A program made the position numbers and the translations under genes. This document shows, piece after piece, positions 4,515-57,098 of a DNA stretch of 64,000 nt. The notes beneath the pieces are model-generated. The model saw only the letters and a program-made list of their open reading frames with translations, had not been told where the DNA came from and made no database searches. Source of the DNA: Rickettsiales bacterium (GTDB taxonomy: Bacteria > Pseudomonadota > Alphaproteobacteria > Rs-D84). Positions within the stretch are counted from its first letter, which is position 1. The number at the start of each line of letters is the position of its first letter. Where the stretch lies: NCBI GenBank assembly GCA_031265235.1, contig JAISCX010000002.1, positions 22,939 to 86,938 on the forward strand, written 5' to 3'.

Positions 4515-4609
4515 GTCGTGATTTGTAATCTGTGATTTGTGATTTGAAGTTGGATTTCAGATCACAAATCACAAGTCACAAATCACTTTTGCGACGAAGG
4601 AGCAAACAA

Positions 4610-11139: not shown

Positions 11140-11215
11140 AAGTGTCAGTGCAAGTAGTTAGGATTGTTGAATGAATATGTTTACCATCCGAAGCACTTGC
11201 ACTTGCACTTGCACT
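11140..11215. repeat. palindromic heptamer-repeat element, family B (GTGCAAG/CTTGCAC arms), empty copy
   Basis: Left arm gtgtcagtgcaagtag and right arm cacttgcacttgcacttgcac around a ~40-nt spacer; the same arms occur at 27508/27899 and 50744-50848. Confidence 0.7.
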
Positions 11216-15717: not shown

Positions 15718-16095
15718 CCCACGCTCTCCTTTTTAGTAATCAGTAATCAGATCGGCAATCAGTAATTTTTGTTACGGATTTCGATTTCTAAAAACCGAAA
15801 GTTTGTTTATATCCAATTTTCTTGGTTTTCCGCCTATTTCAAGCGTAAATACCTTTGTCTACACACGAATCATAAAACAAAAGCGAATCGGCTGTCAACA
15901 TTATTTTTAAGAAAATTAATAATCGGCGGAAATCTGGGATATTTTTTATACAAAATCAACGTCATAGCCAAAGCACATCATTTTTGCAAACGTTTTTTAT
16001 CACATACACGCGTCAATACAAAATAGGGGATGGCGTGCCTCGCAAAATGATTTTATAACTTGCACCAAATCTTGCCGTAGCGTAAGCGAAGGCGG

Positions 16096-20733: not shown

Positions 20734-21609
20734 TTAGAATGCATACGGCTTTGCCCGGAAATTTTCCTGCGCGGCGGCGGCGTTTTCTGCGGCATCCATG
20801 GCGTTTCGTCCCAAATCGGTCAATTCCAGCTGGCCGTAAAACGCCGTCATCGTCGGGTCAAAGGAATTATCGGATGATATCCATTTGTCATTTCCGGAAT
20901 TCGGCGCGCCGTATTTGTCCAATACGCCCTGCCAAAAGCTGAGTATTTTTTTATCGCGCTGGTCTGCGAATTTTTCGGCGTCCCCTTCTATTTCGTTCGC
21001 GTCATTTTTATAAACTATCTTCCAGACGCGGTTTCCGGTTGCGTTGGATGTAAAAAAGACGTCAATTGTCTCGCCGGTTGACATCCGCACCAGATGCAGT
21101 TCGGACGCGTAAAGCAGTCCGCGTTTTTTCGCCAGGGTGTTTATGCATTTTTCAAGTTCGCCGGGGATTATTACTTTCTGCTGTCTGCATTCATAGTCGA
21201 GATTGTTTTTCCAAACGCCCGGCACCGAATATATCACCGAATTTTTTGCGCGCGGCGCATAAAGCGAACGCGATTTGAAAAACAGTGATTGTATGTCCGA
21301 AAAGGCCATGCCCAGCATTGATCCAGCGATATCCATGTCTTCCACTGCGGCAAAGCTGGTGTTTTCATTTAAGTATACGGGCGTGTCTATTGTCATATTC
21401 AATGGCGCGGCATCGGATATTCTGGCGTCCGTCGCGCTTTGGAAATCATAATCGGCTGTCTGAAAGTCATCGAATGCAAAAGGGTCTTCGTCCGCCGCTT
21501 GCGCATGCGGCAAATAGCAAATAGCAGACAGCAGACAGCAAATACGACAGATGCGCGTTAAGCGGCGCGTTTTTTGCTGTCTGCTATTTGCTATTTGCTC
21601 TTTATTCAT
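20734..21609 (-). CDS. secreted hypothetical protein (C-terminal ...KPYAF)
   Basis: 291 aa; the signal peptide is encoded by a palindromic heptamer repeat (family E); acidic N-terminal region; ends in aromatic F. Confidence 0.5.
   Translation of the reverse strand: MNKEQIANSRQQKTRRLTRICRICCLLSAICYLPHAQAADEDPFAFDDFQTADYDFQSATDARISDAAPLNMTIDTPVYLNENTSFAAVEDMDIAGSMLGMAFSDIQSLFFKSRSLYAPRAKNSVIYSVPGVWKNNLDYECRQQKVIIPGELEKCINTLAKKRGLLYASELHLVRMSTGETIDVFFTSNATGNRVWKIVYKNDANEIEGDAEKFADQRDKKILSFWQGVLDKYGAPNSGNDKWISSDNSFDPTMTAFYGQLELTDLGRNAMDAAENAAAAQENFRAKPYAF
21509..21598. repeat. palindromic heptamer-repeat element, family E (GCAAATA/GCAGACA)
   Basis: gcaaatagcaaatagcagacagcagacagcaaata ... tttgctgtctgctatttgctatttgc; lies inside the 5' end of the 20734-21609 CDS. 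Confidence 0.7.
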
Positions 21610-26421: not shown

Positions 26422-26846
26422 TATATTCAAAGGGGATAGAAGTCGGCGTGATTGGGGTCATACTGAACGACGACATGACCAAGGTTTTGGTATGCATCGG
26501 ATCGCCCAAAAGGGGATGGCATATGCCCGGCGGGCATATGGAGCCGGGCGAAACATCCCGCCAAGCTGTAATAAGGGAAACCAAGGAAGAGGTCGGCATA
26601 GATATAGATATCCTGCACGCGTTTCCAGTGCAAGAATTGATAGTGGATTATGACGGCATCGGGCCAGAGCATGTAATAGTATTTCCATATATCGCGAAAA
26701 TAAAGCCGGGACAAGATGTTCGGCCGGACGGGGTCGAGATTTTGGAAGCAAAATGGGTGTCGTTGGATGAAGCGGAAAGCTTGATGAACAAACTTTGGGC
26801 AGGAATTATCGCGCCATTGCGCCAATGGTTGAATGAAAGGAATTAG
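26418..26846 (+). CDS. NUDIX hydrolase
   Basis: Nudix box GGHMEPGETSRQAVIRETKEEVGI. Confidence 0.65.
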   Translation: MIYSKGIEVGVIGVILNDDMTKVLVCIGSPKRGWHMPGGHMEPGETSRQAVIRETKEEVGIDIDILHAFPVQELIVDYDGIGPEHVIVFPYIAKIKPGQDVRPDGVEILEAKWVSLDEAESLMNKLWAGIIAPLRQWLNERN

Positions 26847-26849
26847 AAA

Positions 26850-27506
26850 ATGACAAATACAATAATACGAATTTTGGTGGCCGTGGCATTGATTCTTGGC
26901 GCAATCGGCGCGGGCTTTCTGGAACATTTTGGCATTCCGGTCGTGCGCTGGGTGGCCGCTGCAATATGCGCGGTTATGGTTTTGGAAACTATGATTCTTA
27001 AAATCAAGGACAAAAAGTTATGTTTGTTGCGCTGTGCTTTTGGCGCGTGGATTATACTGATGGGCGTGTCCGCGTATTTTATCGGGTCGCGGCCATTGAT
27101 CATGCTGTTGCTTTTATTGATTATCGCGGCGACAGACACCGGCGCGTGGTTTTTCGGAAAAAAATTCGGCGGGGACAAGATGTGGCCCGCGATTTCGCCG
27201 AACAAGACATGGTCTGGTCAGATCGCGGGAATCATATGCGGAACGCTTGCGGCATTGCTTTACGGATTCATCGGCACCGCTGCGGCCAGCGGTCACATTG
27301 ATTACGGTCAATTTATGCCGCAATTGATGTGGATTGGAATGTCGGTCGCGTTGTTATCCCAGTATGGGGATCTGACCGCCAGCTGGATAAAGCGCAAGCT
27401 TGGCATAAAGGACTTTTCAAACATGTTGCCGGGGCACGGCGGGCTGATTGATCGCTTTGACGGATGGATTTACGTCCTGCCGGTTGTATGGCTGGTAACG
27501 TTGTAA
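26850..27506 (+). CDS. cdsA: phosphatidate cytidylyltransferase
   Basis: Multi-TM protein with PNKTWSG signature. Confidence 0.85.
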   Translation: MTNTIIRILVAVALILGAIGAGFLEHFGIPVVRWVAAAICAVMVLETMILKIKDKKLCLLRCAFGAWIILMGVSAYFIGSRPLIMLLLLLIIAATDTGAWFFGKKFGGDKMWPAISPNKTWSGQIAGIICGTLAALLYGFIGTAAASGHIDYGQFMPQLMWIGMSVALLSQYGDLTASWIKRKLGIKDFSNMLPGHGGLIDRFDGWIYVLPVVWLVTL

Positions 27507-27507
27507 T

Positions 27508-27924
27508 AGTGCAAGTGTCAGTGCAAGTGCAAGTTGGTGGCAAATATGAAATCAGTAGAAGATTTAAATGTTTATAAACTTGGATTCAAAGTAGCATTAG
27601 ATGTTTATAAAATTACAGAAAAGTTTCCAAAGGCAGAAGTATTTGGATTAGTCTCGCAGATGAGACGTGCGGCAATCTCGATAAACTCCAATTTATCCGA
27701 AGGGTGTGCAAGGAATTCTTCGGGAGAATACAAGCATTTTGCAGGAATATCAAAAGGATCGGCGGAAGAATTGAAATTTCAGGTAAAAATATCGCAAGCT
27801 CTAAACTATATTAACTATGAAGAGGCCGCAAAGTTAATAGAAGATATTAACGAAATATGTAAGATGCTAACAGGCCTAATAAAAACTCTAAATTAATACT
27901 TGCACTTGCACTGACACTTGCACT
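27508..27924. mobile_element. MITE-like cassette: perfect 26-bp inverted repeats (family B) enclosing a four-helix-bundle gene
   Basis: agtgcaagtgtcagtgcaagtgcaag at 27508-27533; its exact reverse complement at 27899-27924; inserted between cdsA and rseP. Confidence 0.75.
27534..27896 (+). CDS. four-helix-bundle protein (23S rRNA intervening-sequence protein family)
   Basis: ~120 aa; LNVYKLGFKVALDVYKIT...LVSQMRRAAISINSNLSEG...ELKFQVKIS pattern typical of TIGR02436-like proteins. Confidence 0.7.
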   Translation: MVANMKSVEDLNVYKLGFKVALDVYKITEKFPKAEVFGLVSQMRRAAISINSNLSEGCARNSSGEYKHFAGISKGSAEELKFQVKISQALNYINYEEAAKLIEDINEICKMLTGLIKTLN

Positions 27925-27941
27925 TATGAAAAGGAAATATT

Positions 27942-28994
27942 ATGACTATTTTTTTAACAATTGTCGGACTGTTGATTGTTCTTGGCATTGTCGTGTTTGT
28001 CCATGAATTGGGGCACTATCTGGCCGCGCGGATTTCCGGCGTCAGGGTAGAGGCTTTTTCGATCGGATTTCGTCCGATACTGCGCTGGAAAGACAGGCGC
28101 GGAACGGAATGGCGTCTGGGCTGGGTTCCGTTCGGCGGATACTGCAACATATACGGTCAGGATATGATGTTCAACCCAAAGGAATATGAAGCGCTGCCAA
28201 AAGAAAAAAAGAAGGGGCATTATTTGTCCGTATCCGCGTGGCGCCGGGCGCTGATTATCGCCGGCGGCGTGATTATGAATTTTGCTTTGGCTTTTGTTAT
28301 TTATTTCGGGATTGCGTGGCTGCGTCCGCAAAACGTCCAGCTGCCCGTGATCGGTCAGGTTATTCAAGGATCAAACGCATACGCCGCCGGCGTCCGGGCG
28401 GGCGACACGGTTGTAAAGATTGACGGCGCAAAAATAGCGAACTGGGGGGATTTGTTGATTGCAAAAGAACTGGCCGGGCGTAAGACTGCGGACATAATTC
28501 TGGTGCGCGGGGAAAATTTGGTGAATGTAAAGATGGCGCCCGCGGAACGTTGGGGCCTGGTTGCGGACGGGGCAAAGACGGAAACGCAAAAGAATAATAT
28601 TTGGCAGGCTGGAATCGCAGGCGCGCGCAAGACATGGAAAGAATCAAAAACAATAGTAATCGTGATAAAGCAGATTATCGCAGGCGAACGTTCCAGCAAA
28701 TCGCTGGGGTCGTTCATAATGATCGCACAGGTGTCGGGCCAGGCTTTGGCGGCCGGGTTTGTCGCGCTGTTGTCAATCATCGCGCTGTTGTCTGTGAATC
28801 TGGGGGTGATTAATCTTTTGCCTTTGCCGGTTTTGGACGGGGGGTATTTATTGGTTTTGGCGGTCGAAGGAATAACGCGGCGCAAGCTGCAGGGCAAGGC
28901 GATGGAATACGTCTGGATCGGCGGATGGGTTTTGATCGGCCTTTTGTTTGCGCTTACCATGAAGAACGATATATTCAGGGTGCTGGGGTTGTAA
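27942..28994 (+). CDS. rseP: RIP zinc metalloprotease RseP (M50)
   Basis: HELGHY motif in TM1, PDZ-like segment, LDGG motif. Confidence 0.85.
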   Translation: MTIFLTIVGLLIVLGIVVFVHELGHYLAARISGVRVEAFSIGFRPILRWKDRRGTEWRLGWVPFGGYCNIYGQDMMFNPKEYEALPKEKKKGHYLSVSAWRRALIIAGGVIMNFALAFVIYFGIAWLRPQNVQLPVIGQVIQGSNAYAAGVRAGDTVVKIDGAKIANWGDLLIAKELAGRKTADIILVRGENLVNVKMAPAERWGLVADGAKTETQKNNIWQAGIAGARKTWKESKTIVIVIKQIIAGERSSKSLGSFIMIAQVSGQALAAGFVALLSIIALLSVNLGVINLLPLPVLDGGYLLVLAVEGITRRKLQGKAMEYVWIGGWVLIGLLFALTMKNDIFRVLGL

Positions 28995-36065: not shown

Positions 36066-36150
36066 GGGCATATGGCGGAATTGGTAGACGCGCTAGTTTC
36101 AGGTACTAGTGGGGCGACCCTTGGAAGTTCGAGTCTTCTTATGCCCACCA
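36066..36150 (+). tRNA. tRNA-Leu (anticodon CAG)
   Basis: 85 nt with long variable arm, anticodon stem ctagt/actag with loop TTCAGGT, CCA encoded. Confidence 0.85.
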
Positions 36151-36209
36151 AATTATTATAACGGCACATCTGCGCCATTCTAATAATTTTAAAACCATTT
36201 TATAGTTTC

Positions 36210-36285
36210 GGGGTTGTAGCTCAGTTGGTAGAGCGCTACGTTCGCATCGTAGAGGTCGAGAGTTCGAGTCTCTTCAGCTCCACCA
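36210..36285 (+). tRNA. tRNA-Ala (anticodon CGC)
   Basis: Acceptor and T arms identical to tRNA-Ala(GGC); anticodon loop TTCGCAT. Confidence 0.85.
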
Positions 36286-36288
36286 GGA

Positions 36289-36358
36289 TCAAAGTTGAAA
36301 GCAAAAGATAAAAGCTGAAATATTTCAACTTTCAACTCTCTGCTTTCAATTTTCTTTT
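36289..36358. repeat. palindromic heptamer-repeat element, family D (GTTGAAAG/CTTTCAAC)
   Basis: agttgaaagcaaaagataaaagctgaaat ... tttcaactttcaactctctgctttcaa between two tRNAs. Confidence 0.6.
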
Positions 36359-36360
36359 TC

Positions 36361-36447
36361 GGGGATATGGCGGAACGGTAGACGCTGAGGACTTAAAATC
36401 CTTTGGTTATTGCAACCGTGTGGGTTCAAGTCCCACTATCCCCACCA
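36361..36447 (+). tRNA. tRNA-Leu (anticodon TAA)
   Basis: 87 nt with long variable arm, anticodon loop CTTAAAA, CCA encoded. Confidence 0.8.
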
Positions 36448-44702: not shown

Positions 44703-45722
44703 ATGGCATGGGAAGAAATCATTTTTCCAAACAATATCCGCAACATTCGCCTTTCAAGGGGAATGAAGATGACCGCTGTCGCAAAAAAGGCCGGTCTTTC
44801 GCTTTCCGCGATGTCCAAAGTTGAAAAGGGTGTCCGCCGCTTGAACCAAAAACAGCTGTTGACGCTGTGCGGCATATTGAATTGCAAACTTTCCGATATA
44901 TTTATCAAGGAATCCGACGAAGTTGCCGGCGCATGGCAAAGCGAAATGCAGCGGAGATTATCCGACAATGAAATGTCCGGCCTTAAAATATTCGGCTCTG
45001 GCGTGCGGTTTCTTCGCAAGAAAAAGGGGCTGACCATCGCCCAGGCTGCGAAAGATTCCAAAATGACCCTGTCTGTTTATCATAAAATAGAAGTGGGCCA
45101 GCGCGAAGTTTACGAAGATGAAATCGGGAACCTGGCAAAAGCGCTTGGCAAGACTACGGACGGAATGTTCAAAACAATTGCAGAACTTTATGAATCCGGA
45201 GAGTTGTCAAAACAAATCAGCAAGGTTGAAGAGAAAGTTCGCAGCGTTCTGGTGCCCAATAGTCCGAATGCCGGGCATGGCATCCAAGGCGCTTTGTATG
45301 GGGCAAAGATTTACGAATCCGCGCGCAAGAAACTGGTGCCTGTTTTCGGCACGCCTTCTGAAAAGAACATCATTTTCAAAAAAACCGATGAAAAAATGAT
45401 TGTCGCGCCGCTCAGTCTAGAAGGCAATCCTGGAATTTACGCCATAATTCCGAATGTTCGCAGACTTGGCAATATGTTTCCCGCGCGTTCGTATCTGTTT
45501 GTTAATCCCGACGCGGTTGCGCAACCTGGCGATTTGGCGGTTGCATTTGCAGAAGACTTTGAAAGAATAGAACCTGATGCGAAAACGCATGCGTCGGTCG
45601 TAATGGTCCGCGAAGACGCCAAGGGAAAGCTCTATGGCCAGATGGCGGGACCCGATGAAAAAATTCCGGTTTCCAATAATGGCGGCAGACTGCATAAAGT
45701 CGTGCAGGTGGTGATAGAGTGA
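44703..45722 (+). CDS. CI/LexA-like repressor with tandem XRE HTH domains and a C-terminal S24-like domain
   Basis: Two HTH_XRE segments (IRNIRLSRGMKMTAVAKKAGLSLSAMSKVEKG; VRFLRKKKGLTIAQAAKDSKMTLSVYHKIEVG) plus a ~150-aa C-terminal domain. Confidence 0.5.
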   Translation: MAWEEIIFPNNIRNIRLSRGMKMTAVAKKAGLSLSAMSKVEKGVRRLNQKQLLTLCGILNCKLSDIFIKESDEVAGAWQSEMQRRLSDNEMSGLKIFGSGVRFLRKKKGLTIAQAAKDSKMTLSVYHKIEVGQREVYEDEIGNLAKALGKTTDGMFKTIAELYESGELSKQISKVEEKVRSVLVPNSPNAGHGIQGALYGAKIYESARKKLVPVFGTPSEKNIIFKKTDEKMIVAPLSLEGNPGIYAIIPNVRRLGNMFPARSYLFVNPDAVAQPGDLAVAFAEDFERIEPDAKTHASVVMVREDAKGKLYGQMAGPDEKIPVSNNGGRLHKVVQVVIE

Positions 45723-45813
45723 TTTGTAATTTGTGACCTGTGATTTGTATGAAATTTACCTATCAAGGATTATACTGAATATCAAATCACAAATCACAGA
45801 TTACAAGTCACGA
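45719..45813. repeat. palindromic heptamer-repeat element, family A (GTGATTTGT/ACAAATCAC)
   Basis: gtgatttgtaatttgtgacctgtgatttgta ... atcaaatcacaaatcacagattacaagtcac; second copy at 4518-4586 between rpoB and rpoC. Confidence 0.7.
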
Positions 45814-45826
45814 CTCGGAGAGAGAA

Positions 45827-50743: not shown

Positions 50744-50848
50744 AGTGATTAGTGCAAGTGTTAGTGCAAGTGCAAGCAGTGAATATGAAGATACATGTTT
50801 TTATCATGCATCCTTGATCCACTTACACTTGCACTTGCATTTACACTA
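50744..50848. repeat. palindromic heptamer-repeat element, family B (third copy)
   Basis: ttagtgcaagtgttagtgcaagtgcaagcagtg ... ccacttacacttgcacttgcatttacac. Confidence 0.65.
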
Positions 50849-51658
50849 TTCAGCGCAGCTGATTTTCACAATCCCGGCATTGTCGATCAGGCATGCGCCT
50901 TGGGACATGCTGTTGCATACGAAATGCGCGGCGCGCTCGCCATTCCAAGAAATGTCGGTTTTGACATCCTGGCCGGATGCGTGCCCAACGGCGGACGCGT
51001 GATACATAAAACAGTCGCGCACGCCGTCGTCTTCCGGCAGGCCGTTGTGCAAAAGCCAATTGACCCCAAGCCATTTCTTGGTTTCAAATCCGCCGACCAG
51101 CGCGCCGGTTCCGACATAGTCCGCATTGGTGAATTCTTCCAATGACAGCAGTTCGTTCCACTGGTGCACTCCGACGACGCAGAATCTGCGGCCGTCGTCA
51201 GGAATATCTTTTTCGTTCAGATATTCGACGGCGGAAAGAATCAGATCTTTGGAAAGACCCGTAGCTCCGGTGCCGGCAACTGTCAAAGCGCCCGACATCG
51301 CATTGATGATCAGTTCATCCGTTTTGCGACCAAGCGCGTACGCGCCGGCGGATGCGACGACGCGGCGTTCATCGATGTTGGTTTTTAATTCATCCAGGGC
51401 ATCGACCCAATCGCCGGCGTAATAGTCGGCCAGCTGGCATTCGACCGGCGTGTGCTGCAGGTTCATGACAGGAACCAGTTCATGGCGTTCTTTGGTTGCG
51501 GCGGTGCCTTTGCCGACTTTTTGAAATACGGTGCTGGCGCCCGTGACACCGTTCTTGGAACGCACGGTAGAGCGTAATTTTGTTCCGGTCTGCTGGTATG
51601 CCAAATGCACGTCAGCTTCGAACTGTTTTACAAATGCATGATCTATGGTTAAAGACAT
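50846..51658 (-). CDS. T7-like major capsid protein (gp10 family)
   Basis: HAFVKQFEADVHLAY...RSTVRSKNGVTGASTVFQKVG parallels T7 gp10 ALFLKVFGGEVLTAFA...RHMVRSISSGKSAQFPVLG. Confidence 0.7.
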   Translation of the reverse strand: MSLTIDHAFVKQFEADVHLAYQQTGTKLRSTVRSKNGVTGASTVFQKVGKGTAATKERHELVPVMNLQHTPVECQLADYYAGDWVDALDELKTNIDERRVVASAGAYALGRKTDELIINAMSGALTVAGTGATGLSKDLILSAVEYLNEKDIPDDGRRFCVVGVHQWNELLSLEEFTNADYVGTGALVGGFETKKWLGVNWLLHNGLPEDDGVRDCFMYHASAVGHASGQDVKTDISWNGERAAHFVCNSMSQGACLIDNAGIVKISCAE

Positions 51659-52001: not shown

Positions 52002-52451
52002 TTACCAAGCTTTTCTTGCGGCCGGCTTTTTCTTCGCCGGGGCTTTTTTTGCAACCGGTTTCTTTGCCGCAGGTTTTTTCACCGCAACTTTCTTAACGGC
52101 CGGTTTTTTTGCAACCGGCTTTTTCGCTGGGGCTTTTTTCGCAACCGGTTTCTTCGCCGCAGGTTTTTTTGCGACCGGCTTTTTCTTCGCCGGGGCTTTC
52201 TTCGCGATCAGCTTTTTTGCGACCGGGGCCTTTACGGCCAGCTTTGCGACTTTCTTCGCGGCGGGTTTTTTCGCCGGGGCTTTTTTCGCGACCGGATTTT
52301 TGACGGCCACTTTCTTCGCAACGGCTTTTTTCACCGCCGGCTTTTTAGCGGCCGGTTTTTTCACCGCTGGCTTTTTCGCCGCAGGCTTTTTAGCGACCGG
52401 TTTCTTTGCCGCAGGTTTCTTCGCAGTGGGTTTCAAGAATGAAAATGCCAT
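52002..52451 (-). CDS. histone H1-like Lys/Ala/Pro-rich protein (AKKPAAKKPVAKK repeats)
   Basis: AGGAG RBS before MAFSFLKPT; about 25 pentapeptide repeats encoded by 15-nt tandem DNA repeats; the plus-strand F/A/G-rich track ORF is its antisense. Confidence 0.55.
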   Translation of the reverse strand: MAFSFLKPTAKKPAAKKPVAKKPAAKKPAVKKPAAKKPAVKKAVAKKVAVKNPVAKKAPAKKPAAKKVAKLAVKAPVAKKLIAKKAPAKKKPVAKKPAAKKPVAKKAPAKKPVAKKPAVKKVAVKKPAAKKPVAKKAPAKKKPAARKAW

Positions 52452-52552
52452 TCTTCCTCTCCTTCTCTTTTGTTTTGATAGAACAAAATTTTTTTGTTCT
52501 TGGTACAATTGTATCTGAAACGAAAAAAATAGTCCAGAACATTTTGTAAAAA

Positions 52553-53206
52553 TCACGAATAAAGTTTTTTAAATCCGCTTTCGATCTTTCGTATGTATTC
52601 AGGATTGCGATCGCGCCAATATTTTGGATCGCGCATCATATCGCGGAGGTCATTGTCAGACAAATTCCCGCATTCGTTTTTTGACGTTGAAACGGATGGC
52701 TCTATATTTTGCATCATGGCAAAGATGCTGCGGATTCCCGCGGATGACGCGCATAACGATTCGTAAGTGTCTTTGGGCAAAAATTTTTCCGCAAAAGCGT
52801 CTATCGCCGTTAACGATTCCCGCATTTTTTCTTCGCTGCCGAAAAAGCTTTTTAATTCGAACATCGCGTCTGCAACATATCCCGATTGAAATATTTCCGA
52901 CAAGGCGGGTTCGAAAAATTCATTCGCGATTTCGTAAATTTTTTCAACCTGCCGCGCATTAAGTCCCGCTTCTTGAAATTTTTTCCGAATCATATCGTCA
53001 TCATACAAAGGATGCATAGGATATCCCGATATATCTTCCGGCACCCCGATTGCGCGGTTGAACCTGGCTTTGGAATCATCGTCCGCGTCATCGTTTGGCA
53101 ATGACACCATTGTTCCGATTTTCTTTTCAAGTTCGGAATATGATTTGATCAACGCCTCTGGGTTAAGCGTTCCGTCCTGGTTTTGGAATTTTTCTGGGAT
53201 TTGCAT
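52553..53206 (-). CDS. acidic protein, candidate scaffolding protein
   Basis: 217 aa, D/E-rich, positioned upstream of the capsid gene as gp9 is in T7. Confidence 0.35.
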   Translation of the reverse strand: MQIPEKFQNQDGTLNPEALIKSYSELEKKIGTMVSLPNDDADDDSKARFNRAIGVPEDISGYPMHPLYDDDMIRKKFQEAGLNARQVEKIYEIANEFFEPALSEIFQSGYVADAMFELKSFFGSEEKMRESLTAIDAFAEKFLPKDTYESLCASSAGIRSIFAMMQNIEPSVSTSKNECGNLSDNDLRDMMRDPKYWRDRNPEYIRKIESGFKKLYS

Positions 53207-56815: not shown

Positions 56816-56989
56816 ATGGCAGTTCCAAAGAAAAAGACCAGCAAAGCCCGCAGCAAGCAGCGCCGCGCGCATGATGCGTTGCCCGTAATGGCGTCCGGCA
56901 CATGCAAGAAATGCGGCGAAAAAAAGCGTCCGCACCATATCTGTCCGGCATGCGGAAACTATGACGGCAAGGCGATAGTAGTTAAATAG
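56816..56989 (+). CDS. rpmF: 50S ribosomal protein L32
   Basis: MAVPKKKTSKARSKQRRAHDAL..., 57 aa, not in the ORF track (below 60 aa); AAGGAT RBS. Confidence 0.85.
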   Translation: MAVPKKKTSKARSKQRRAHDALPVMASGTCKKCGEKKRPHHICPACGNYDGKAIVVK

Positions 56990-57098
56990 TGAAAGAAGTG
57001 AAATAGTTAAAATATGCTTTGTATATTTTAACAGTGAAAAAAGTGAATTTGTTCACTCTTTTCACTTTTTTCACTCTTTTCACTCTTTTCACTTACAA
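56985..57098. repeat. palindromic heptamer-repeat element, family C (second copy)
   Basis: agtgaaagaagtgaaatag...cagtgaaaaaagtgaa | ttcactcttttcacttttttcactcttttcactcttttcac, between rpmF and plsX. Confidence 0.65.

Follow-up and report, generated by a model that had tools for sequence, protein, structure and literature searches.

The 64,000-nt stretch analyzed here (the window; contig JAISCX010000002.1 of a Rickettsiales bacterium, assembly GCA_031265235.1) contains, at 27508–27924, a 417-bp unit in which a gene for a small four-helix-bundle (4HB) protein lies between two arms that are exact reverse complements of each other. An earlier note on this DNA, made from the sequence alone, took the unit for a member of a family of miniature transposable elements with inverted repeats (MITEs) that may have captured the gene. 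Here we describe the unit, follow the gene and its arms through close relatives and across the protein family, and argue, with reasonable though incomplete confidence, that it is a hairpin cassette of the type known from the intervening sequences (IVSs) of 23S rRNA, made up of gene, leader and tandem-repeat arms and lodged in an operon spacer.

Results

The 417-bp unit and its host site

The unit interrupts the uppS-cdsA-rseP operon in an intercistronic spacer of 18 nt. The locus is arranged as follows (the arms have no assigned strand):

26850–27506, plus strand: cdsA, the upstream host gene (PF01148, E = 2.9e-44)
27508–27534: left (5′) arm, 27 nt, 4.5 tandem hexamers AGTGCA/AGTGTC (Tandem Repeats Finder period 6), the perfect complement of 27898–27924
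27535–27545, plus strand: leader from arm to start codon, with a Shine-Dalgarno (SD)-like GGTGG at 27536–27540, read from the sequence
27546–27896, plus strand: 4HB gene, 116 aa from ATG (PF05635/TIGR02436)
27898–27924: right (3′) arm, the exact reverse complement of the left arm, beginning 1 nt after the stop of the open reading frame (ORF)
27942–28994, plus strand: rseP, the downstream host gene (TIGR00054, E = 9.4e-67)

The left end of the unit carries the 26-mer AGTGCAAGTGTCAGTGCAAGTGCAAG (27508–27533, plus strand), and its exact reverse complement occupies 27899–27924; by chance, none would be expected. The earlier note had reported these exact terminal 26-mers, and the perfect inverted repeat in fact runs to 27 nt (27508–27534/27898–27924). 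Its description of the unit was otherwise accurate: profile matches confirm cdsA and rseP as the genes between which the unit is wedged, and a single ORF of the PF05635/TIGR02436 family is enclosed. That ORF had been given as 120 aa, the length obtained from an alternative TTG start at 27534, but we judge the ATG at 27546 likelier. The tandem-hexamer make-up of the arms was absent from the note. The unit is closely packed between its neighbors, with the cdsA stop codon 1 nt before the left arm and the end of the right arm 17 nt before the rseP start.

When folded as RNA, the unit is predicted to form a terminal stem of 27–29 bp (ΔG −118 kcal/mol, z = −5.75). The 14-mer core of the arms occurs 15 times in the window, compared with 0.21 occurrences expected. 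A different read set, assembled independently in Logan (L001, 4555 nt), matches the window at 100% identity across the whole unit, and we therefore rejected the possibility of an assembly artifact. A promoter and terminator scan of 26800–28100 returned nothing beyond shuffle expectation, no U-tract terminator was found at the arms, and Rfam detected only tRNAs in the window and provided no family for the hairpins.

The repeat units of arms often contain a 4-nt palindrome or a self-complementary pair (TGCA; CTAG; GTGAC/GTCAC). Such units were seen at 27508–27534 in the window and in three related loci (L006, 8480–8523; L188, 2177–2197; L189, 394–416), and each of these arms could also fold on itself.

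The encoded protein

The ORF matches PF05635 (E = 1.2e-35; 122.3 bits, curated cut-off 33.8) and TIGR02436 (E = 9.3e-35; 119.1 bits, curated cut-off 24), and Pfam and NCBIfam scans of the gene (E ≤ 1e-3) returned four-helix-bundle/Avd-type families only. It also matches PDB entry 2gsc (Xanthomonas XCC0516; E = 5e-19), which was deposited with five chains. The 2gsc homologue has been described as a pentameric ring (PMC4990558), and by similarity to it the window protein may form such a ring as well. The polar motif R-x3-S-x3-N-x2-E, which has been reported on the bundle (PMC3936711), is present as R41, S45, N49 and E52 and is invariant in an alignment of 27 sequences. With dN/dS of 0.08–0.23 against homologues, the ORF is under purifying selection.

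The nearest copies in reference genomes are those of Ca. Enterousia (56% identity) and of an uncultured proteobacterium known from a metagenome-assembled genome (55%). PF05635 itself is large, comprising 16,972 clusters at 50% identity. Many family representatives (P0147, P0152, P0162, P0163, P0177, P0189 and others) are 250–430 aa long, with the 4HB domain at about residues 6–121. These long proteins may have arisen by read-through of the right arm, which would fuse the 4HB gene to its downstream neighbor; alternatively, they may be gene-calling artifacts arising from arms that lack stop codons.

Occupied and empty sites in relatives

Relatives with the cdsA–rseP site were found by scanning metagenomes for RseP. 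In the two closest of these with an unoccupied site, at 61–63% identity, the distance from the cdsA stop to the rseP start is 28 nt (L108) and 21 nt (L109, on a 696-kb contig), and neither spacer contains arms or gene. Excision of 27508–27924 from the window leaves a spacer of 18 nt. Because the unoccupied relatives have only 21–28 nt at this position, the 417-bp unit is a clean insertion. The earlier note had proposed comparing this spacing among related genomes, and the comparison yielded the empty site; it had also proposed looking for target-site duplications, and at six cassettes we found none, only chance matches of 0–3 nt. No transposase adjoins the unit or its homologues, in a screen confined to immediate neighbors, and no adjacent recombinase was found. 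A tblastn search of cultured phages gave no copy, and the six matches of the arm 17-mer in viral contigs were discarded as irrelevant, all of them lying in coding Ser/Ala/Val repeats.

A further relative, L188, carries a cassette at exactly the same cdsA|rseP site. Its CdsA, RseP and 4HB proteins are 62%, 64% and 69% identical to those of the window, a similar divergence of cassette and flanks that is consistent with an old insertion carried vertically. Other close homologues (59–74% identity) occur elsewhere: after gyrB (L002), between mraY and ftsW (L004), between dxs and rnhA (L006 and L008) and between rpoB and rpoC (L189). Each of them is bracketed by complementary arms of NGTGNN(N) units. 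Of the sites occupied in relatives, those 3′ of gyrB, between mraY and ftsW and between dxs and rnhA do not fall within the window.

Comparison of these loci reveals how arms and gene change together. The units of the window and L002 align end to end, with 53 of 54 arm positions identical, 75% identity in the coding sequence and unrelated flanks. Given dS = 1.29 for the two ORFs, this conservation of the arms is not neutral (p = 3e-6 at 75% per-site identity). At the cdsA|rseP site, AGTGCA in the window corresponds to AGTGAC in three of the four left-arm units of L188, and the right arm has changed to match; the L188 arms pair best, at 20 of 21 positions, when shifted by one unit in register. 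Evolution of the two arms is concerted, compensatory change keeping them complementary while the repeat unit changes, and the gene is inherited and exchanged together with its arms as a single unit.

Two of these loci have further peculiarities. The rpoB|rpoC spacer of L189 (387–1035) contains a cassette with two ORFs, in the order left arm, 4HB gene, second arm copy and single right arm; the second, direct copy of arm plus leader, tttaatatggagtaaaaaATG, drives a hydrophobic ORF of 50 aa. In L008 (1–3317), Microviridae-type genes (Phage_F capsid, REP_ORF2-G2P) lie directly beside housekeeping genes and may represent an integrated microvirus.

Gene and arms across the protein family

How general is the association? 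A family profile was used to collect 80 loci from reference genomes of many phyla, and 79 homologues from more than 12 phyla were scored by the best match, in inverted orientation, of the 150 nt preceding the gene to the 150 nt following it. The median score was 34 at 4HB loci and 16 at control positions of the same loci (99th percentile 24). The control 99th percentile was exceeded by 65 of the 79 homologues (p ∼1e-115) and, on viral contigs, by 14 of 18 copies. Most sampled members (∼100, from many phyla) have the gene inside complementary tandem-repeat arms.

Arms have a median length of 28 nt, or about four units (copies per arm: median 4.0, interquartile range 3.4–4.7), and their best period is 7 in 57 of 69 cases, 6 in six and 8 in four. 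A median of 20 nt separates the first arm from the start codon; the second begins a median of 6 nt past the stop, often overlapping the end of the ORF. An SD-like motif lies upstream of the heuristic start calls in 34 of 69 cases. G makes up 32% of the 5′ arm and C 13%, with the mirror-image bias in the 3′ arm.

The repeat unit is specific to the locus (AGGCTGA, GAGATTT, TAGTGGT, GGTTTTC, AGGGACA and others), and several arm flavors coexist in one genome. Flavor follows the protein: it is common to 40% of pairs with at least 70% protein identity versus 0.1% of pairs below 45% (Mantel p = 0.017), and it can be shared across phyla, for example by Nitrospira and Desulfobacterota proteins at 78–81% identity. 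Among cyanobacterial examples, pNPUN02 of Nostoc punctiforme (NC_010632.1, 15234–15599) carries a cassette with AGGAGTC arms, and pNe_5 of Nostoc edaphicum (L199; NZ_CP054697.1, 259376–259744) has seven TAGGGAG units per arm. The copy on pCC7120alpha of Nostoc sp. PCC 7120 (L196; NC_003276.1, 3776–4126) has a CTCTGCC heptamer array on its downstream side only and lacks a partner for it upstream. Within ∼1.1 kb on either side lie a transposase gene and an IS200/IS605 tnpA gene, and this cassette may have been disrupted. A core-plus-spacer test for variation concentrated in particular repeat phases gave p = 0.25 for all arrays and p = 0.004 for in-register arrays (one pre-stated filter).

Arms of this kind enclose hardly any other gene. 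Of the nearest-partner inverted pairs formed by tandem arrays, 46 have loops of at most 200 nt and 51 have loops of 301–600 nt, and 50 of the latter 51 hold a 4HB gene. The arms are accordingly not structures found generically at the ends of genes. The upstream neighbor is co-oriented with the 4HB gene in 53 of 57 cases, compared with 64% of other adjacent pairs in the same loci (p = 5e-7), and the left arm begins a median of 4.5 nt past the stop codon of the upstream gene. Since an inverted repeat could insert either way round, this bias speaks for a role of expression from the host transcript. Since arms accompany ∼80% of the sampled family across phyla and co-vary with the protein, capture of the gene by pre-existing arms, as the earlier note had suggested for one copy, is unlikely; gene plus arms is the ancestral unit.

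One copy, on plasmid AZO_p2 of Azospirillum lipoferum 4B (NC_016586.1, 14398–14730), is a true rRNA IVS: Rfam places it within a large-subunit rRNA gene (2529 bits), ∼1150 nt from the beginning of the rRNA, and it has 36-nt arms of CAGAGGA/CGGATGA heptamers. No conserved 23S motifs were found in the flanks of the ∼100 sampled cassettes. The earlier note's view of 23S IVSs as the usual home of these proteins is not borne out by this sample, in which the rRNA location is the minority.

Hairpins without a gene

In addition to the unit, the window contains tandem-repeat hairpins that enclose no gene (no strand is assigned to them):

4518–4586: cargo-less hairpin with GTGATTT heptamer arms, in a rpoB|rpoC-like spacer (z = −8.2)
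11140–11215: cargo-less hairpin with AGTGCA-hexamer arms, filling the spacer between two plus-strand genes (minimum free energy [MFE] −28.6, z = −4.7)
21510–21603: cargo-less hairpin with GCAAATA/GCAGACA heptamer arms and a stem of ∼35 bp, between two minus-strand genes (MFE −55, z = −9.9)
36291–36354: degenerate heptamer hairpin of GTTGAAA units, between two tRNA genes (z = −3.6)
45719–45816: cargo-less hairpin with GTGATTT-type heptamer arms, between two plus-strand genes (z = −5.9)
50744–50852: cargo-less hairpin with the arm flavor of the cassette, between two minus-strand genes (arm similarity score 47, z = −5.2)
56988–57093: nested hairpin between divergent genes, its arms built of AGTGAAA(AA)/TTCACTCTT repeats (z = −8.6)

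The cargo-less arms that the earlier note placed at 11140–11215 and 50744–50848 are both real. In the first hairpin, the left arm, AAGTGTCAGTGCAAG, is shorter, and the right arm consists of (GCACTT)x3.8; in the second, 50751–50776 matches the 26-mer at 25 of 26 positions and has an imperfect inverted partner at 50822–50852. At least five further hairpins in the window, which the note did not mention, have other arm sequences made of 7–9-nt tandem units, and all of them fold much more stably than shuffled sequences (z = −3.6 to −9.9). Each of the six intercistronic hairpins of the window is flanked by genes of the same direction and begins −7 to +8 nt relative to the stop codon upstream of it. 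In the rpoB|rpoC spacer, the window has an empty GTGATTT hairpin, whereas L189 has a full 4HB cassette with different arms. The degenerate hairpin at 36291–36354 is contained in a tRNA gene cluster (36066–36444), indicating that hairpins also occur in the spacers of tRNA operons.

The interiors of the cargo-less hairpins show no similarity to the gene or to each other by local alignment (p = 0.17–0.9). That they are deletion relics of the local gene is consequently unsupported in the window (interior-to-gene alignment p = 0.28–0.9).

Two other repeat tracts were noted. The direct heptamer array at 15735–15766 (AGTAATC x 4.9) has no inverted partner nearby, and not all heptamer arrays in this genome are therefore hairpins. 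Dense tandem repeats of 15, 30 and 45 nt at 52009–52434 fall within a minus-strand ORF (52002–52556) and apparently belong to a repeat-containing coding region, perhaps a Lys/Ala-rich one.

Beyond the window, cargo-less hairpins are concentrated around 4HB genes. In 555 kb surrounding such genes, we counted 265 period-7 arrays and 39 short-loop hairpins (0.070 per kb), compared with 18 period-7 arrays and two hairpins (0.004 per kb), neither of them heptameric, in 495 kb of RseP-selected control loci that lack a 4HB gene. Hairpin density is ∼17-fold higher near 4HB genes (p = 3e-9 for hairpins, 7e-52 for arrays). Seven of 37 hairpins share the arm flavor of the local cassette, where 0.4 would be expected. 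In L022 (3597–3862), heptamer arms enclose an in-frame, internally deleted 4HB gene in which profile positions 3–18 are joined to 81–119. With helix 1 joined to helix 4, this gene is a plausible intermediate toward an empty hairpin.

Discussion

How could a cassette of this kind persist in the middle of an operon? We propose that it is probably a transcriptional hitch-hiker that is processed by RNase III. Presumably lacking a promoter of its own, the cassette would be transcribed by read-through from the host gene (or rRNA), whereupon the arms would pair into a perfect duplex of ∼27 bp. RNase III would cut this duplex, as has been demonstrated for the IVSs of Coxiella and others, and cleavage would release the 4HB mRNA and separate the flanking cistrons, or rRNA halves, without destroying them. 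As the flanking cistrons would be left functional, insertion into essential operons would be tolerable. The cargo-less tandem-repeat hairpins could then be decayed or dependent relatives of the cassette.

Several observations weigh against this proposal. Both RNase III cleavage and read-through transcription are steps that we infer by analogy. Arm mismatches show no excess of G·U on the sense strand (58 G·U versus 74 A·C, p = 0.19), and thus no sequence signature of selection on RNA pairing; complementarity may instead be re-established in the DNA itself, template switching from one arm to the other being a conceivable route. The cassette of N. edaphicum is an exception to co-orientation, lying antisense between two ribonucleotide reductase genes, and ∼15–20% of family members, such as the alpha copy of Nostoc PCC 7120, have no detectable arms. 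The control loci for hairpin density come from other taxa (metagenome contigs), such that taxon is confounded with the presence of 4HB genes, and 30 of the 37 cargo-less hairpins have flavors other than that of the local cassette. The interiors of the window's cargo-less hairpins have no detectable derivation from the gene, and the idea of decayed cassettes is supported by one intermediate, L022. Since the Coxiella ORF seems to be untranslated, the role of the ORF may also differ between contexts.

A more ambitious scheme, compatible with the hitch-hiking cassette and extending it, would make gene and repeats a single working system. A ring-shaped 4HB oligomer would act on the 4–5 units of its own arms, either through putative binding akin to that of TRAP on spaced triplet repeats, resulting in autoregulation or RNA protection, or by recruiting a host enzyme that creates, maintains or spreads hairpins, as REP-associated tyrosine transposases (RAYTs) do for repetitive extragenic palindromes (REPs) and the REPINs that they form. 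Cargo-less hairpins would be its non-autonomous clients. We hold this scheme only tentatively and think it rather unlikely as a whole. It would account for the near-identity of arms (53/54) at a dS of 1.29, beyond what is neutral, for the co-variation of arm flavor with protein sequence and for the enrichment of hairpins, with a partial match to the cognate flavor, near 4HB genes. The distant homologue bAvd, moreover, is an adaptor that binds nucleic acid and reverse transcriptase. A median of 4.0 copies per arm sits well with the five chains and pentameric ring of the 2gsc homologue (PMC4990558), and in-register arrays vary mainly at certain phases of the repeat (p = 0.004). However, the same test on all arrays gives p = 0.25, and duplications of higher order might produce such a signal. 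A 64-kb window with one 4HB gene contains several unrelated arm flavors, and the protein has no recognized catalytic motif and, judging its sequence by eye, is not obviously basic.

The other explanations fare less well. That the unit belongs to a MITE-like family with 26-bp terminal repeats, mobilized in trans, of which one copy captured the 4HB gene, was the proposal of the earlier note and appears improbable to us. Much of what suggested it stands: the terminal inverted repeat is perfect, the insertion is discrete and clean when compared with empty sites, the same arms occur three times in the window, twice without the gene, and a homologous unit occupies another site in another genome. What does not fit is that the six cassettes have no target-site duplication, that the unit and its homologues have no transposase among their immediate neighbors, that tandem 6–7-nt repeats of many unrelated, locus-specific flavors, several to a genome, make up the arms, and that the interiors of "empty" copies are unrelated. 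Across phyla, the 4HB gene is also the constant partner of the arms rather than an occasional passenger. The note had recognized that its idea would suffer if such arms ended many unrelated genes, or if relatives had the same gene without repeats; in fact, 50 of 51 long-loop pairs hold a 4HB gene, and homologues at other sites carry arms. These findings make it very improbable that the arms are generic intercistronic RNA hairpins (REP-like stabilizers, processing sites or terminators) with a 4HB gene inside by coincidence. In its support one might cite the window's other tandem-repeat hairpins, at least seven in number, which are all located in spacers, most of them within operons, and the convergent heptamer pairs of Xanthomonas that enclose no gene (PMC4692102), but arms bracket the gene in 65 of 79 family members, which come from unrelated genomes, the 4HB gene is practically the sole gene to be so enclosed, arms co-vary with the protein, and no U-tract terminator occurs at the arms. 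We give still less credence to the gene being a remnant or accessory gene (Avd) of a diversity-generating retroelement (DGR). Weak similarity to the bAvd family PF22296 (29.6 bits) and the Avd model NF033474 (33 bits) points that way; yet both scores are under the curated cut-offs (40 and 80 bits, respectively), PF05635/TIGR02436 is the strong match, and the gene has cdsA and rseP as neighbors, with no reverse transcriptase or template/variable repeat next to it.

The hitch-hiking cassette bears on several long-standing puzzles. The origin of rRNA IVSs and the function of the protein that some of them encode have been open questions since the early 1990s, and PF05635 genes have gone unexplained inside cas operons and many other operons. 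In the window, the element is seen away from rRNA, its arms intact, its ORF under selection and its empty site identifiable. On our reading, "IVS protein" genes become hitch-hiking cassettes, not functional partners of the host operon, and 4HB cassettes are tied to the surplus of heptanucleotide repeats that has long been noted in some bacteria without explanation. One might speculate further, although we consider it doubtful, that PF05635 proteins belong together with tandem-heptamer hairpins in a single pan-bacterial gene-repeat system, the protein recognizing the 4–5 units of its own arms and, with a host enzyme, maintaining or propagating hairpins. If so, they would constitute a class of selfish element whose "autonomous" member is the hairpin-enclosed 4HB gene. 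This one class would cover 23S rRNA IVSs, "CRISPR-associated" and operon-embedded IVP genes, and much of the heptanucleotide repeat load of Xanthomonas, Nostoc and many uncultured lineages.

The element itself is of a known kind, the IVS type, and the family-wide rule that joins gene and hairpin appears to be unreported. Within an incomplete library of full-text literature, we found no description of a general gene-hairpin association, and an earlier description elsewhere is possible; previous work had placed IVP genes inside cas operons.

The closest known relatives are the IVSs of 23S rRNA (Leptospira, Coxiella burnetii, Azospirillum), which enclose the same family (S23p/PF05635) and have a terminal stem of ∼28–36 bp, comparable with the perfect 27-bp stem of the window unit. 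In both, tandem repeats in the 5′ arm stand directly upstream of an ORF that is in the sense orientation in the host transcript. In Coxiella, the 28-bp terminal stem is cut mid-stem by RNase III, and tandem GACAGAT heptamers, the copy number of which differs among strains, lie upstream of the S23p ATG (PMC4990558). ORF-bearing 23S IVSs, with their strain-variable repeat copy number, are regarded as selfish and vertically persistent. The two differ as follows: IVSs lie in helix 25 or 45 of the rRNA and their cleavage fragments rRNA, whereas the window unit lies between two protein-coding genes and its cleavage would split an mRNA; arm period is 7 in the former and 6 in the latter. In addition, the Coxiella ORF has been reported as decaying and untranslated, its protein apparently not being made (PMC4990558), whereas the window ORF is under purifying selection. 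Being outside a 23S rRNA gene, the window unit is IVS-like but not an rRNA IVS. Judged by the features that they share in sequence, ORF-bearing IVSs and operon-spacer cassettes are the same kind of element.

Likenesses to other systems are more partial. As with REP/REPIN sequences and RAYTs, extragenic hairpins are dispersed, mostly in transcribed spacers inside operons, a single protein gene is flanked by inverted copies of a repeat that also occurs dispersed as hairpins, repeat flavor is tied to the gene copy, and target-site duplications are absent. However, RAYTs are HUH/Y1 transposases (TnpA-REP) with demonstrated activity and the 4HB protein has no such domain, REPs are unique palindromes rather than tandem 6–7-nt arrays, and the flavor match here is partial (7/37). 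MITEs resemble the unit in being short, intergenic, multicopy elements with terminal inverted repeats that are present or absent at orthologous sites. Of the three MITE features tested, the unit shows terminal repeats and lacks both target-site duplication and full-length homology among copies, the interiors of which are unrelated; it also differs in its tandem-repeat arms, in that coding cargo is the rule among 4HB cassettes and in having no transposase next to it. The Avd protein of DGRs (bAvd) is a small adaptor with a homologous four-helix-bundle fold and a pentameric ring. It binds both nucleic acid and reverse transcriptase, and we know of no report of such arms at DGR avd genes. The window gene differs in scoring below the family cut-offs and in its cdsA and rseP neighbors, without an adjacent reverse transcriptase or template/variable repeat. 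The homology to bAvd has been noted (PMC10053308).

Finally, the GGGAATC repeats of Xanthomonas and the short tandemly repeated repetitive (STRR) sequences of heterocystous cyanobacteria, GGGGA(C/T)T, are likewise period-7 arrays in intergenic regions, and Xanthomonas genomes have 70–75 convergent heptamer pairs each that are potential stem-loops (PMC4692102). Studies of these taxa have treated the heptamers as G-quadruplex or fingerprinting sequences, with no link to 4HB genes. The heptamer-rich taxa are also rich in 4HB genes, with 19 plasmid matches in Nostoc and 4 in Calothrix, and the PDB homologue comes from X. campestris.

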